This document shows, piece by piece, positions 30,588 to 36,014 of a stretch of DNA of 64,000 nucleotides. A program made the translations under genes and the position numbers. Below the pieces are notes generated by a model. That model was not told the origin of the DNA, did not search any database, and saw only the letters and a program-made list of their open reading frames with translations. The DNA lies in assembly GCA_963797095.1 (NCBI GenBank), contig CAWCNY010000004.1, positions 256,001-320,000 on the forward strand, given 5' to 3'. Within the stretch, counting starts at the first letter, position 1, and the number at the start of each line of letters is the position of its first letter. This DNA comes from an uncultured Chloroflexia bacterium. GTDB taxonomy: Bacteria > Chloroflexota > Chloroflexia > QHBQ01 > JADMIH01.

Positions 30588-32486
30588 ATGTACGTACTTG
30601 GTACCGCAGGCCATGTAGATCACGGCAAATCAACTCTAGTGAAAGCTCTCACAGGCATCGACCCTGACCGCCTCCGGGAAGAGAAGGCGCGCGAGATGAC
30701 CATAGATCTGGGCTTCGCCTGGCTTACCCTCCCCTCCGGCAAAGAAGTGTCAATAGTGGACGTACCCGGCCATGAGCGGTTCATCAAGAACATGCTGGCG
30801 GGTGTAGGTGGCATCGATGCAGCACTCCTCGTGATCGCCGCCGATGAAGGTCCAATGCCTCAAACCGAGGAGCACCTGGGCATTCTCCACCTCCTCGGCG
30901 TTGAACGCGGCGTAATCGTCCTAACCAAGATCGACCTGGTAGATCTTGACTGGATAGGCCTAGTTCAGGAGGAAATTCGGGAGCGCGTGCAGCAAACCAC
31001 GTTGGCCCGGGCCCCCATCGTGCCTGTCTCAGCTCGTACCGGCCAGGGTCTACCCGCACTTCTCAATGAGATCGACCGGGTGCTAGCCGGTACGCACCCT
31101 CGCACCGATCGTGCCGAGCCGCGCCTATCCATCGACCGTGCTTTCACAATTTCAGGCTTCGGCACTGTAGTGACGGGCACGCTCATTGATGGCACTCTCC
31201 ACGTGGGCCAGGAAGTTGAGATCGTTCCAGGCAACCTCAAGACCCGCATCCGAGGCTTACAAAGCCACAAACACAGGGTCGAAAGCATTGGGCCCGGCAA
31301 TCGTGTGGCGGTCAACCTCGTTGGCCTCAATGTCGATTCGATAAGACGCGGTATGGTACTTGCCCTCCCAGGTAAGGTGCGCTCTACCAGGCGAGTCGAT
31401 ATTCACCTCCAACTACTACCCGACGCTCCTGCTCCACTTGGGCAGAACGATCCACTCGACTTCTTCACGGGATCAGCCGAAACGCCAGTGCAGGTCACCC
31501 TCCTCGACACCGAGCGCCTCGAACCCGGCAGCACCGCCTGGGCGCAACTTCGCCTGCGCGACGAAATTGCCCTCGTAAAAGGCGACCGCTACATAGTGCG
31601 TCAGCCATCGCCAAGCCTCACAATAGGCGGAGGGTCCGTGATTGATCCTCATCCCAGGCGACACAAACGCTTCCACGAAGAGACGCTCAAGAACCTGGAG
31701 ACACTCGAAATTGGCGCGCCCAATGAACTGCTTCTACAGGCACTCGGTAACGCGCCACTGGACGCCAGGACCGCCATCGAACGATCTGGCGTGGACAAAG
31801 GAGAGGCGATCTCAACCATCCAACAACTCATCACCGAAGGCCACATTATCCAGCTTACAGGCGACAAAACTACCACACTGAATCCTCAATCCACAGCGCT
31901 CTACATCAAGACGGCTGCATTCGAGGAGACTATACATCGTGTGAGCGATATGCTAGCCCAATACCATCGCCAGAATCCGCTGCGAAGTGGCATGAGCAAA
32001 GAGGAATTGCGCAGCCGCCTCTCGACTTCCACGCCATCCATCCCACCAAAAGCGTTCCCATACATCATGGCCCTCGCCGTCGCAAAAGGCGCGATTGCCG
32101 AAGAAGCCACTACTTTCCGGCTGCCCAGTCATGGTCCCACATATACCCCTGCACAGGAAGCCCAGTTGCGAGCGTTTCGCCGCGCCAATGCGGACTCGCC
32201 GTATTCGCCGCCCTCTCCCGCCGAATTGGGCATCGATCAGGAGGTTCTTGCTTCCCTTATCGAAAGCGGTGAGGTGATCAGGATAGACGACCTTTACTAT
32301 ATGCGCCCAGTCTTCGATGAGATGAGAGCTCGTATTCTGACCACAATTGACGAGAAGGGCGAGATCAACGTAGCCGGGATGCGCGAACTCTTCGGCACGA
32401 CCCGCAAATACGCCATCCCCATACTGGAGTATCTGGATCAGCACAAGATCACGCGCAGGGTCGGCGATGTGCGTGTGCGTTGGTAG
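30588..32486 (+). CDS. selB: Selenocysteine-specific translation elongation factor
   Basis: GTAGHVDHGKS, DPDRLREEKAREMTIDLGFA, DVPGHERF, C-terminal winged-helix TRKYAIPILEYLD. Confidence 0.97.
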   Translation: MYVLGTAGHVDHGKSTLVKALTGIDPDRLREEKAREMTIDLGFAWLTLPSGKEVSIVDVPGHERFIKNMLAGVGGIDAALLVIAADEGPMPQTEEHLGILHLLGVERGVIVLTKIDLVDLDWIGLVQEEIRERVQQTTLARAPIVPVSARTGQGLPALLNEIDRVLAGTHPRTDRAEPRLSIDRAFTISGFGTVVTGTLIDGTLHVGQEVEIVPGNLKTRIRGLQSHKHRVESIGPGNRVAVNLVGLNVDSIRRGMVLALPGKVRSTRRVDIHLQLLPDAPAPLGQNDPLDFFTGSAETPVQVTLLDTERLEPGSTAWAQLRLRDEIALVKGDRYIVRQPSPSLTIGGGSVIDPHPRRHKRFHEETLKNLETLEIGAPNELLLQALGNAPLDARTAIERSGVDKGEAISTIQQLITEGHIIQLTGDKTTTLNPQSTALYIKTAAFEETIHRVSDMLAQYHRQNPLRSGMSKEELRSRLSTSTPSIPPKAFPYIMALAVAKGAIAEEATTFRLPSHGPTYTPAQEAQLRAFRRANADSPYSPPSPAELGIDQEVLASLIESGEVIRIDDLYYMRPVFDEMRARILTTIDEKGEINVAGMRELFGTTRKYAIPILEYLDQHKITRRVGDVRVRW

Positions 32487-32537: not shown

Positions 32538-33383
32538 TGAGTGACAACACCGGGAGCGCTAGTGCTCCTGCTGCCGAAACGAGCGAGCCGAAGAGCCTGG
32601 AGTGGGCTCTCATACTGGGATCATCTTCAGGTTTTGGGGCCGCCACCTCCATTGCCCTCGCCGAGCAGGCAGGCCTCAATGTCTGCGGCGTCCACCTGCG
32701 TCGCCCAACCGATCAGGATATGTTCGAGGAAGTCAAGTCGCGTATCGAAGCGGCGGGAACTCAAATACATCCCCTTCAACATGAACGCCGCCAATCCCGA
32801 CCGCCGGAAGGATGCCCTCGACAAGATGGCCGAAGCAATGGACGGCTCAGGCTTCCGGGTGCTTCTCCACTCCCTCGCCTTCGGCACCCTCAAACCCTTC
32901 GTAACTCCCAACCCCGAAGACTCAATCCAGCAGCCCAGCATGGACATGACCCTCGATGTGATGGCCCATTCCCTCGTCTACTGGGTACAAGATGCCCTTC
33001 AACGAGGTATGTTGGGGCGAGGCAGCCGCATATTTGCGATGACCTCCGCAGGATCGCACCGCATCGTTCCCAACTACGGAGCGGTGTCAGCGGCCAAGGC
33101 CTCACTTGAATCGCACATTCGCCAGCTTGCCGCCGAACTTGCACCACGCGGCATAACCGCCAATGCAATCATGGCGGGCGTCACCGACACCCCCGCGCTC
33201 CGCCGCATACCTGGCAATGAACGACTCGTGGAGGGCGCTTTGGCCCGCAATCCCTCCGGCAAACTCACCCTTCCGACCGATATAGCCAACTTTATCGCCC
33301 TCCTCGCCAGGCCAGGCTCAGGGGCCGATTGGCTAACCGGCAACGTAATTAACGTTGACGGTGGCGAAGACATAATGGGCTAG
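32538..33383 (+). CDS. Enoyl-ACP reductase FabL-like SDR, with a 1-nt frameshift at ~32758
   Basis: LILGSSSGFG in one frame. HSLAFG and YGAVSAAK in the other. Deleting one A gives AAGLKYIPFNMNAA. Extended -10 TGCTATAAT at 32492-32500. Confidence 0.85.
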
Positions 33384-33477: not shown

Positions 33478-34296
33478 ATGAGCAAGACGGCATATTCCAA
33501 AACACGGCCCCCATCTCGGCCAGCACCTGCTCGTCCTAGTCAAGTTGACGATTACGACGATGTACAGGAACCCATACGACCTCGATCCCAACGCAAGCAA
33601 TACGACGAGGAATACAATGAGAAATACAATGAGGAAAACGAGGATTACGAGGATTACGACGGCTACTACGCGGACGATGAGGAAGTTGCCGTAGTCTCCA
33701 TAAACCGGCGCGCTGTCGCGCTCTCAGTGTCAGCTATACTCGTGGTCGCGATCTTTGGCGTAGCAATCTGGCTCCTGATGTCCAGGAATAGCGTCCAGCA
33801 ACCTGCGGAGGGCCGCCTGACAGATATCCCAACCATAACGGGCTTCAACCCGGCCACCGCAAGCGAGGCCCAGGCCCCCAATAAAGGCTCTCCCGCACCT
33901 GATTTTGAGTGGCCTGAGAACGGATCTAGCGTGTCGCTCTCCTCCTATCGAGGCGATAAGCCCGTTTTCGTGAATTTCTGGGCCACATGGTGCCCTCCCT
34001 GCAAGGCGGAAATGCCCGAAATAGAGAACATATATAACACGCATAGGAACGACCTGGAGATTATCGGCGTCTCCATGGGCCCCCGAGACTGGCCCCAGTT
34101 GGTCCTCGACTTCGTCAATAAGACTACGTACAGTTGGAAGTTTATCCATGATGGCGATTATGGCATTGCCACACGCTACCAGGTGGTGAGCATCCCAAGC
34201 TCGTTCTTCATTGACAAGAACGGCGTCATCCAGGCCATCCACGTCGGTCAAATGGACCAGAGCATGATGGAGAGCTACTTACAACAGATTCAGTAG
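33478..34296 (+). CDS. Membrane-anchored TlpA/ResA-family thiol-disulfide oxidoreductase
   Basis: One TM segment, APDF, NFWATWCPPCKAEMP, cis-Pro IPSSFFID. Confidence 0.92.
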   Translation: MSKTAYSKTRPPSRPAPARPSQVDDYDDVQEPIRPRSQRKQYDEEYNEKYNEENEDYEDYDGYYADDEEVAVVSINRRAVALSVSAILVVAIFGVAIWLLMSRNSVQQPAEGRLTDIPTITGFNPATASEAQAPNKGSPAPDFEWPENGSSVSLSSYRGDKPVFVNFWATWCPPCKAEMPEIENIYNTHRNDLEIIGVSMGPRDWPQLVLDFVNKTTYSWKFIHDGDYGIATRYQVVSIPSSFFIDKNGVIQAIHVGQMDQSMMESYLQQIQ

Positions 34297-34350
34297 TCCT
34301 TATTAGTCTTTTTCCCTAGCTCGCGACAGATCAGGAGGTAATCACTTCTA

Positions 34351-35115
34351 ATGAGTCAGCTTCCAAAGCGGAGGCCACCCGCAGGTCAGGGTCAGAACCG
34401 ATCCCAAAGTCAGCGGAGGTCAGACCCCTACGCCGAATACCCACCACCTAGCAGACGTTCCGCTGGGCCGCCACCGCCCGGTGGCCGGTATTATCAGCAG
34501 AGGCCAAGAGCGGTCTACCCCCAGCGCGACCCCTTTCCCTACATCCTGGGTGGCCTAATCGGCGCGATGTTGGTCGGCCTGATGTTGGTCATCTTCCTTT
34601 TGATCAACAATAACAACGGCACCACCGCAGTACAGAACCGAGCCACCACTGGCAACACTACCACAACTGACCAGACCACAGGTGAGACCACAGATGACAC
34701 ACCACCGCGCATGTCGATGGACGACTTCAAGGCGCTCTACGACGACCCCGCAAAGCGCCCCATGATCATTGATGTGCGCCCATCTGATGCCTATAATGAG
34801 GGTCACATTGCGGGCGCGGTTTCCATGCCAGAAGACGATATCGACATTCTGCTCGATAAGATCCCCAAGGATTCACTCGTCATCGCGTACTGTCAATGAC
34901 CGGCCGAAAATGAAAGCGCCCGTGTGGCGCAAAAGCTACATGAAGAATATAATTACAGCTACGACAATCTGAAGGTGCTCCTCGGTGGTTGGACTGCGTG
35001 GAAAGATCAGAATACAAACAACCCGACAGGCTATCCAATCGAAACGGGTGGATCAACCGCCCCCACTACACCTCCTAAGGTGGTCATCACACCCAGCACT
35101 GTGATCACTCCATAA
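34351..35115 (+). CDS. Membrane-anchored rhodanese-domain selenoprotein (CxU; UGA 34897-34899 read as Sec), 254 aa
   Basis: IIDVR...GHIAGA...AYCQ-TGA-PAENESARVAQKL...KVLLGGWTAW. The rhodanese domain is complete only if the UGA is read through. SECIS-like hairpin at 34916-34930. selB is nearby. Confidence 0.88.
34916..34930 (+). promoter_or_regulatory. Putative bacterial SECIS hairpin
   Basis: GCGCC-CGTGT-GGCGC starting at +17 after the UGA, with a GU-containing loop. Confidence 0.55.
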
Positions 35116-35140
35116 TCACAGCGTCAAAACATCTATTCAA

Positions 35141-35169
35141 GTATGGGCGGGCCTAAACCCGCCCATACA
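35141..35169 (+). terminator. Intergenic hairpin between the two rhodanese genes
   Basis: GTATGGGCGGG / CCCGCCCATAC 11-bp stem, no U-tract. Confidence 0.45.
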
Positions 35170-35207
35170 TGTGCAATCTCAAGCGTAACTGGAGTTCCTA
35201 TACCACA

Positions 35208-35945
35208 GTGGATAACCAGCCAAGAGAACACAAACCGGTACGGCATATCAGGCCTGACCATAAAGGGGATCACCACGACCAACAATCTCGGCGTGCAAAT
35301 ATCGCAAAGCACGATCCTTTCCCCTATATGATTAGTGGCCTCATCACCGCCGCTGTGCTCGGCCTGGTCCTCGTCGCCTGGCTCCTCATCTCACCGGGTA
35401 GCACCGGCCTTCCCCTAGCACCCGCTCCAACCGCATTCGCGAACGCCCCATTCGATTTTCCTACTTCCGCGATCCCGATCCCTGCCGGCGCCGCAGCGCC
35501 GGGCGATGTGCCGACCCTTGAGGTTCCAACCCAGGATATCGCTCTCCCGCCTCCCGAACCCACCGGCTCACCTCCCCCCGCCGACGACCCGCCACGTATC
35601 GCCCTCGGTGACTTCAAGGCCCTCTACGACGACCCGTCAAGTCGACCCCTGATTCTTGACACTCGCAATGAGCAAGCATACTCGGAAGGCCATATACCGG
35701 GTGCGGTACTTTTCCCCGCTTCTGACGTGGTAAGCAATGTTGTCACGCTTCCCAAAGACAGGCTGATCGTTGCCTACTGCCAATGACCGGAGGAACACAC
35801 CAGCGCCAGTGTGGCGCGGCAGTTGAAAGAGCAGTTCGGCTTCAGCTATGGCTACGTGAAGGTCCTGCTTGGCGGCTGGGATGCCTGGGCCACAAAGAAT
35901 TCGCAGGACCCCGCCGGATACCCTATCGCTACAGGTGATAAATAG
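35208..35945 (+). CDS. Second membrane-anchored rhodanese-domain selenoprotein (CxU; UGA 35784-35786)
   Basis: ILDTR...GHIPGA...AYCQ-TGA-PEEHTSASVARQL...KVLLGGWDAW...GYPI, ending at TAG 35945. Start GTG 35208 (GGAG upstream) or ATG 35169. Confidence 0.88.
35800..35819 (+). promoter_or_regulatory. Putative bacterial SECIS hairpin
   Basis: CC-a-GCGCCA-GTG-TGGCGC-GG. The core stem starts at +17 after the UGA, as in the paralog. Confidence 0.55.
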
Positions 35946-36014
35946 ACGCTATCCCATAATCAAGCTCTGGTGGCCCGTTTATGGGCTGCAACTCGCCCAC
36001 TAATATCCAATTGG

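Follow-up and report, generated by a model that had tools for sequence, protein, structure and literature searches.

In the 64,000-nt stretch of uncultured Chloroflexia DNA analyzed here (the window), an open reading frame on the plus strand (34351-34899) is called as a 182-residue protein ending ...KDSLVIAYCQ at a TGA codon (34897-34899). The initial annotation had claimed that this stop falls inside a rhodanese domain, and that the same frame continues for 71 codons with the missing C-terminal half. Is the TGA a true stop, or is it decoded as selenocysteine (Sec), and what would the complete protein then do? Both observations were borne out, the first by the list of open reading frames and by Pfam, the second by translation with TGA read as U. 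This translation gave 71 further in-frame codons, PAENESARVAQKL...KVLLGGWTAW..., up to a TAA at 35113-35115, and the peptide directly past the UGA reads PAENESARVAQKLHEEYNYSYDNLKVLLGGWTAWKDQ.... The read-through gene (Sec-rhodanese 1, 34351-35115, plus strand) encodes 254 amino acids from the ATG at 34351, with an AGGAGG sequence at 34333-34338, 12 nt ahead of this ATG.

The rhodanese homology domain of this protein (34717-35007, plus strand, residues 123-219) scored 58.2 bits with Pfam Rhodanese PF00581, for a cut-off of 22.2. It lies across the TGA, which corresponds to residue 183, and is therefore complete only when the UGA is read through. The UGA is followed by a C; together with the TGT codon of Cys181 (34891-34893, plus strand), it would form a C-Q-U motif. 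Cys181 is invariant in 27 aligned sequences. These relatives share the N-terminus MSQxPRxxxPxR, and residues S189, A190, A193, L196, G212, W217, Y228 and P229, all encoded 3' of the UGA, are also invariant among them. A search of sequencing runs found no RNA run and one soil-metagenome DNA run with 0.34 of words shared; its eight short matching contigs (151-166 nt, at least 99% alike) fall outside 34792-35052 and 35575-36000 and so reach neither of the two TGA codons in the window.

Two paralogues share this anatomy of rhodanese domain, TGA and downstream hairpin. The first, Sec-rhodanese 2 (35169-35945, plus strand, 258 aa, start codon uncertain), is in tandem, 53 nt past the end of gene 1. 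It reads ...RLIVAYCQ-TGA-PEEHTSASVARQL..., with its in-frame UGA at 35784-35786 (plus strand, predicted Sec206). Its product has a transmembrane segment, scores 55.7 bits with Pfam Rhodanese, and is 52-53% identical to Sec-rhodanese 1 over the rhodanese domain. The third copy is located on the minus strand of another contig (G000:C5:533409-533984) and reads LYCQ-TGA-PHDEESASVAY. Its neighbours, a DUF711 gene and a homocysteine S-methyltransferase gene, gave no functional clue.

The conservation of the TGA was assessed at several scales. In an alignment of 40 genes (the two window genes, the genome's own third copy and 37 genes from other published genomes, including other Chloroflexota classes), TGA occupied the Sec column in 40 of 40, and the base right after it was C in 38. 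The best 60 matches to the read-through domain in 201 genomes of the class all contained a TGA inside the match (E no higher than 3.9e-19). The window's genus and a single sister family account for all 60 matches; 52 were from published genomes and 8 from unpublished ones, and no conclusion rests on those 8. A stop at the same column, always TGA and always after Y-C-[Q/A/S/D], was found in 31 distinct genes, and in 2 further genes. Public gene models reflect the same codon. Among 73 homologues from an index of 5.8 billion proteins, the window's own call included, 64 end exactly at YC[QANS], and two are JGI models in which the codon is given as W, followed by PAENESARVA[QT]KLH; the rest are one fragment and six distant ArsR-rhodanese fusions. 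At the 50% identity level, where 1.84 billion representatives were searched, the top 150 matches include 63 proteins that end at YC[Q/H/A/D].

Cysteine forms of the gene were looked for in the nine next-best matches of the same genus that are free of stops. Seven of the nine are orthologues of the third copy, with the sequence YC[D/E]-C-P[H/N]DEES and TGC or TGT at the Sec column. Of the remaining two, one is an ordinary rhodanese with CLSGGRS (L061) and one an ArsR-type YCRGPYC form. Full-length relatives with a CxC motif were also found, namely P0081 (TYCHCPNEEESARVAQ, 56% identity) and P0084 (LYCQCPDEGES, 54%).

The machinery for selenocysteine insertion is present in the genome. The gene for the selenocysteine-specific elongation factor, selB, is itself located in the window (30588-32486, plus strand), about 1.9-2 kb upstream of Sec-rhodanese 1. 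Its product scored 351.9 bits with TIGR00475 (cut-off 242) and contains the SelB winged-helix domains. Elsewhere in the genome we detected selA (566.7 bits), selD (324.6 bits), which itself contains one TGA, and, on another contig, a single tRNA-Sec with a TCA anticodon (69.1 bits). In the window itself, ARAGORN detected no tRNA.

A GC hairpin with a GU-containing loop had also been proposed, starting at +17 after the UGA. It is present at 34916-34930 (plus strand), where GCGCC (34916-34920) and GGCGC (34926-34930) flank the loop CGUGU (34921-34925). This putative SECIS thus starts 16-17 nt 3' of the UGA and lies within codons S189-A-R-V-A193. Folded alone, its 5-bp GC stem and NGUGN loop have an energy of -9.1 kcal/mol. 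Bacterial SECIS elements reportedly (Zhang & Gladyshev 2005) obey rules of distance from the UGA and of G/U in the loop; the position of the present stem-loop, directly 3' of the UGA, and its apical G/U agree with these rules. Sec-rhodanese 2 carries the equivalent hairpin (35803-35817, plus strand, GCGCC-AGUGU-GGCGC) at the same +17 offset, and CxU rhodanese genes of other Chloroflexota classes share this hairpin and its offset. The strict motif occurs only five times in the 6.0-Mb genome, and three of these occurrences are at the rhodanese paralogues, each exactly 19 nt past the T of the in-frame TGA. This coincidence is far beyond chance. In selD, a similar hairpin of 5 bp, with GU in its pentaloop, begins about 12 nt after the UGA.

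The five codons that hold the hairpin are frozen in related genes. Codons +6 to +10 are AGC in 31/31, GCC in 31/31, CGT in 26/26, GTG in 28/28 and GCG in 31/31, with no synonymous change in 31 genes. At conserved residues on either side, Ala +2 uses four codons, Leu +13 five, and Glu, Asn, His, Tyr and Asp two each. In the 40-sequence alignment, the stem is paired in 96% of 200 cells, loop position 2 is G in 40/40 and loop position 3 is U in 39/40. The RNAalifold consensus of the 40 sequences is exactly the 5-bp hairpin. Conversely, the hairpin is gone in 7 of 7 Cys orthologues of the third copy. One of the Cys forms (L057) retains the ESASVAY peptide of the Sec form, and two synonymous differences remove the loop GU and a closing pair. 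Hairpin loss in the Cys orthologues is thus the decisive natural control for the predicted SECIS.

Other folding analyses were less informative. In single-sequence folds of 81 and 50 nt, the minimum free energy structure of paralogue 1 pairs 34921-34928 with 34935-34942 instead of forming the 5-bp hairpin. For paralogue 2, the 5-bp hairpin is the minimum free energy choice, and the 81-nt fold is no better than shuffles (z = 0.28). Covariation was limited to a single pair with a double change in one sequence (the second gene of L051), for which a register shifted by 1 nt is the better fit, and the covariation score of the hairpin was attained in 7 of 500 shuffles. Since the stem hardly varies, covariation is uninformative here, and support for the hairpin therefore comes from the frozen synonymous sites and from its loss in Cys forms. 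Rfam at gathering thresholds gave no SECIS or other credible family over the whole window; at E values up to 10, the region 34850-35880 matched nothing beyond three weak eukaryotic snoRNA/lncRNA models (E of at least 1). From the conservation data, we consider it very likely that the hairpin acts as a SECIS.

These data bear directly on the meaning of the TGA. An alternative genetic code in which TGA specifies a standard amino acid such as Trp or Gly, as three public gene calls with W (P0005, P0007, P0093) might suggest, is as good as excluded, because TGA is otherwise an ordinary stop in this DNA (it closes 16 of 38 long open reading frames in the window, where it is the commonest stop, some of them with full-length Pfam matches), the genome encodes selA, selB, selD and a tRNA-Sec with a UCA anticodon, orthologues have Cys at the column and not Trp or Gly, and the hairpin travels with TGA only.

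The TGA could also be a true stop, leaving a pseudogene or a truncated protein of 182 residues and a downstream frame that is a relic. Gene callers do end the protein here, both in the window and in the 64 database homologues mentioned above. However, half a rhodanese domain could not fold, because both Pfam and the AlphaFold model need residues up to about 220. Moreover, the 71 downstream codons are kept in frame in 27-40 genes of two families and in more distant genes of the phylum. The stop is never TAA or TAG in the 40 aligned genes, and orthologues have Cys codons at the same column. We therefore regard a true stop as highly improbable.

Altogether, a conserved in-frame UGA with conserved coding sequence downstream, Cys homologues and the set of selA, selB, selC and selD make it almost certain, as far as sequence can tell, that the in-frame TGA of gene 34351-35115 is a selenocysteine codon and the gene a selenoprotein gene. 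The initial annotation had read the UGA as selenocysteine in a CxU motif, and the TGA/Cys column, the hairpin and the sel genes all speak in favour of this reading. Those of its proposed checks that can be made on sequence data came out the same way. Indeed, the homologue alignment gave TGA or Cys at the Sec column (40/40 TGA, seven Cys orthologues), selA, selD and tRNA-Sec(UCA), in addition to selB, were found in the genome, and a conserved hairpin was located, by RNAalifold and by the frozen codons, at the position expected of a bacterial SECIS.

Is this a new kind of selenoprotein? CxU rhodanese selenoproteins are already known as predictions. According to review passages (PMC13188914, PMC9312934), the rhodanese-like 'form 3', or NF041203 rhodanese_LYCAU, was first predicted by Zhang & Gladyshev 2005, and an earlier review entry lists 'COG0607 form 2, CxU'. 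NF041203 is the best NCBIfam match of all three paralogues (67.6, 66.6 and 61.9 bits in six-frame searches). At the protein level, paralogue 1 (P0001) scored 72.7 bits and paralogue 2 (P0002) 67.2 bits, neither of which reaches the equivalog cut-off of 115 bits. The cut-off was reached by none of the 201 genomes sampled across the phylum in a six-frame search; matches at E up to 1e-15 were found in 31 of the 201, the window's genome included, and at least one TGA occurred in 35 of the 38 matches listed. Like NF041203, the protein has a single rhodanese domain and a UGA-encoded, predicted Sec in a Y-C-x-U motif at the same place. The alignment covers model positions 14-120 of 126 and includes the C-x-U (AYC-Q-U), the U column of the model being taken from the family name and the review table. 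In contrast to this 126-position domain model, Sec-rhodanese 1 has 254 residues, with a basic tail, a transmembrane anchor, a low-complexity linker and a Pro/Thr tail. Its motif is AYCQU-PAENES and not LYCAU, and its gene stands in a row with resA-like and selB genes. Since NF041203 is the best match and stays below its cut-off, the Sec-rhodanese belongs, by sequence, to the CxU kind already predicted, as a divergent Chloroflexia branch with a membrane anchor, and is not a new kind. In the passages of open full-text literature covered, no CxU rhodanese was described that is membrane-anchored or comes from Chloroflexia, and no function was demonstrated for any CxU rhodanese.

The gene row offers a possible redox context. 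A membrane-anchored ResA/TlpA-like thioredoxin with a WCPPC motif is encoded 54 nt upstream of Sec-rhodanese 1 (33478-34296, plus strand). It matches Pfam AhpC-TSA/Redoxin, and its score with NCBIfam ResA (107.6 bits) is under the cut-off of 170. In 21 of 31 related loci, or 18 of 28 after merging three duplicate loci, a ResA-like homologue lies next to the rhodanese gene, and WC[PQG]PC is found in 18 of 18 full open reading frames of these neighbours. No such neighbour is seen at 10 of the 31 loci, four of which end about 120 nt or less from the gene, at a contig end or at the edge of the stretch analyzed, and no ResA-like gene was detected within the 3.6-kb locus of the third copy. The order selB-SDR-resA-rhodanese is also found in L019 and L021.

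The protein is predicted to have one membrane segment. AlphaFold places a single transmembrane helix at residues 62-87 (34534-34611, plus strand), preceded by a basic tail, and the hydropathy peak is at residues 65-83 (mean KD 2.71). Lys and Arg outnumber Asp and Glu by 12:3 ahead of the segment, and the ratio is 1:4 in the 30 residues past it. This charge bias predicts an N-in/C-out signal anchor, so that a Thr/Asn-rich tether would hold the rhodanese domain outside. Thus, the gene most probably encodes a 254-residue type-II signal-anchor membrane protein with a single C-terminal rhodanese domain and a predicted Sec183. In other Chloroflexota, relatives have this domain and hairpin on various supports: behind a lipoprotein-type signal peptide (LSLGC) in L071, behind a transmembrane anchor in L074, and as a C-terminal fusion to a Na+/H+ exchanger in L070, L072 and L075. 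An outward-facing Sec domain had been suggested at the outset; it is supported, rather than proven, by the positive-inside rule and by the relative with the lipoprotein-type signal.

A genuine selenoprotein could nevertheless have the reverse topology (N-out/C-in). Its domain would then act in the cytoplasm without depending on the ResA-like neighbour, for instance by carrying sulfur or selenium for the modification of cofactors or tRNA. Most characterized single-domain rhodaneses are cytoplasmic, the tails of Na+/H+ exchangers, to which some relatives attach this domain, are often cytoplasmic too, and the 10 of 31 loci without a ResA-like neighbour would fit such a role. However, the positive-inside bias across the helix is clear, and the Thr/Asn/Pro-rich linker and the Pro/Thr-rich C-terminal tail resemble exposed tethers. 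In addition, one relative has a lipoprotein signal peptide, and the commonest neighbour is a membrane-anchored thioredoxin of the ResA/TlpA type, a class that acts outside the membrane. A cytoplasmic domain is thus unlikely, and the topology signals make an outward-facing rhodanese domain the likely arrangement.

The fold of the domain was modelled with AlphaFold from the 27-sequence alignment. The pLDDT was 92-98 for residues 121-230. The model shows a strand at 177-180 (VIAY), a loop at 181-186 (C-Q-U-P-A-E) and a helix at 187-200, all with pLDDT above 92. The top Foldseek matches were all rhodaneses, namely the single-domain proteins 6mxv, 3tp9 and 3nhv (BH2092), and GlpE was matched as well. 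Thus, both the Pfam score, above threshold, and the alpha/beta fold identify a rhodanese domain. Because it is the first residue after the central strand 177-180 in this model, Cys181, and not Sec183, probably occupies the canonical catalytic position, with Sec183 at +2. A gapped BLAST alignment with the CLSGGRS rhodanese (L061), which includes a 2-residue gap, also places the catalytic Cys opposite Cys181. However, an ungapped HMMER alignment to 6mxv places it opposite Sec183. The assignment is therefore based on the AlphaFold model and the gapped BLAST alignment.

Among solved structures, the best ungapped match (36.6 bits) was BH2092 of Bacillus halodurans (PDB 3nhv, 3o3w), a single-domain rhodanese. 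It resembles Sec-rhodanese in fold (Foldseek E of 5e-7), in loop length, which is equal, and in the motif Y-C-x-x-P-A-x-N. It differs in its YCWGPACN sequence, with Gly at the Sec183 column and another Cys three residues further on, and it is soluble and no selenoprotein. Classical thiosulfate sulfurtransferases (GlpE, 1gmx; Pseudomonas aeruginosa, 1yt8) share the rhodanese fold with a Cys that ends the central strand, as here. Their loop is reportedly made of six residues and basic, C-R-x-G-x-[R/T] (Bordo & Bork 2002). In contrast, the loop of Sec-rhodanese 1 is C-Q-U-P-A-E followed by N-E-S, which departs from this motif in being acidic, in lacking the anion-binding Arg/Thr and in placing Sec at +2. 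All three paralogues have an acidic active-site loop (PAENE, PEEHT and PHDEE), and that of Sec-rhodanese 1 is without Arg, Lys or Thr.

The loop is also what weighs on the remaining alternative, in which the protein is an extracytoplasmic selenoprotein working as a sulfurtransferase, with a persulfide or perselenide on Sec183/Cys181, or as an enzyme reducing arsenate, selenite or tellurite. The fold is that of a rhodanese, and the rhodanese/Cdc25 superfamily includes arsenate reductases, one of which (2j6p) is among the fold matches. The motif of sulfurtransferases is CRxGx[R/T] and that of phosphatases and arsenate reductases is Cx5R. An acidic C-Q-U-P-A-E-N-E loop without the anion-binding Arg, Lys or Thr is therefore a poor fit to a thiosulfate sulfurtransferase or to a Cx5R phosphatase or arsenate reductase. 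Such an enzyme is a possible but minority reading. On the same grounds, Sec-rhodanese 1 is better read as a putative extracytoplasmic thiol/selenol redox or sulfur-relay protein than as a classical rhodanese.

Such a protein would be made and work as follows. When the ribosome reaches the leaky UGA-C, SelB-GTP-Sec-tRNA(Sec) would bind the hairpin and Sec would be inserted. The nascent chain would be anchored N-in/C-out, leaving the rhodanese domain outside. As Cys181 stands at the head of the loop with Sec183 two residues on, a selenenylsulfide could form between the two and be resolved, or the pair could serve as carrier of a persulfide or perselenide. The membrane-anchored ResA-like WCPPC thioredoxin may re-reduce the Sec-rhodanese. 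This thioredoxin would in turn be fed by one of the two CcdA/DsbD-type transporters of the genome; two DsbD_TM genes over the cut-off were found elsewhere in the genome, and no CcdA/DsbD gene within the window. Paralogue 2 (35169-35945) would work like Sec-rhodanese 1. We hold the part of the ResA-like thioredoxin as redox partner to be plausible and still tentative, at somewhat less than an even chance. A similar pairing is known from TsoB (NF045694, a rhodanese/DsbD fusion-like selenoprotein), which, by its family description, combines a Sec rhodanese with thiol-disulfide electron-transfer parts and in this respect resembles the rhodanese and its ResA-like neighbour. However, TsoB is one fused protein of 572 positions with a UxxxxU motif and two Sec, whereas separate genes and a CxU motif with one Sec are found here. 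The score of Sec-rhodanese 1 with this family was 24.7 bits against a cut-off of 805, and no DsbD domain was found in the gene or in the window.

At the level of the RNA, the minimal 15-nt putative SECIS overlaps conserved codons, and offers a clean case of dual RNA and protein constraint on five codons. More speculatively, the Cys-x-Sec domain and its embedded hairpin may be a portable extracytoplasmic selenium module carried on varied anchors (a signal-anchor helix, a lipoprotein signal or a Na+/H+ exchanger), which in soil Chloroflexia would act with a ResA-type thioredoxin, in one gene row with selB, as a redox or sulfur relay on the outer face of the membrane. If this were true, it would be a selenium-dependent envelope thiol system that is so far biochemically undescribed.

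Dozens of public gene models of this branch are cut at the UGA, as the 64 close homologues (of 73) and the 63 representatives (of the top 150) counted above show, and some of the truncated models are named "rhodanese-like domain-containing protein" by NCBI. Therefore, the selenoproteome of soil Chloroflexia is under-counted. With a tethered and probably outward-facing domain, a conserved thioredoxin-like neighbour and natural Cys controls, the branch provides a testable setting for the predicted CxU rhodaneses.

A second Sec-rhodanese gene lies in tandem with the first in the window (35169-35945, + strand), with its TGA at 35784-35786 and its own hairpin, a putative SECIS element, at 35803-35817. 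The encoded protein has its own TM segment, and its domain is 52-53% identical to that of the first paralogue. The conserved MSQxPR start is absent from its N-terminus, and the assignment of the start codon is uncertain. The two paralogues are separated by a perfect 9-bp GC-rich inverted repeat (35142-35165; ATGGGCGGG-CCTAAA-CCCGCCCAT), located right after the TAA of the first gene and right before the called ATG of the second. No T run follows this repeat; possible roles are in mRNA processing, in transcript stability or as an attenuator. Further upstream, a short-chain dehydrogenase/enoyl-ACP-reductase-like gene (32541-33383, + strand) lies between selB and the resA-like gene, a position kept across related loci with 76-88% identity.

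Elsewhere in the same genome (G000), selD (C2:243079-243930; locus L002) itself encodes a selenoprotein (AQCAG-U-AGKMGP); about 12 nt 3' of its UGA begins a hairpin whose 5-bp stem closes a CUGGU loop. A third Sec-rhodanese paralogue (LYCQ-U-PHDEES) was located at C5:533409-533984, minus strand (L015:1498-2289). In seven other genomes of the same genus, its orthologue carries Cys (TGC/TGT) and the hairpin is absent, a pattern that suggests Sec and Cys were exchanged recently inside one genus.

A more divergent Sec-rhodanese is the second tandem gene of locus L051 (L051:2179-2226). Its hairpin (AGCAA-GCGCG-UUGCU) differs in sequence, is placed 1 nt further upstream and has a loop without GU; among the stem variants, it is the only one with compensating stem changes.

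In other Chloroflexota (loci L070, L072 and L075), the CxU rhodanese forms the C-terminal domain of a Na+/H+ exchanger of about 530-560 aa (for example L070:1483-3078, minus strand; PF00999, 129 bits), and the hairpin is identical to that of the window's gene. These are predicted to be Sec-containing transporter fusions.

Finally, the UGA is rendered as Trp in three public gene models of Sec-rhodanese homologues (P0005, P0007 and P0093), presumably because the gene caller picked a TGA=W code on short contigs. Such gene models mask the selenoprotein by another route than truncation.
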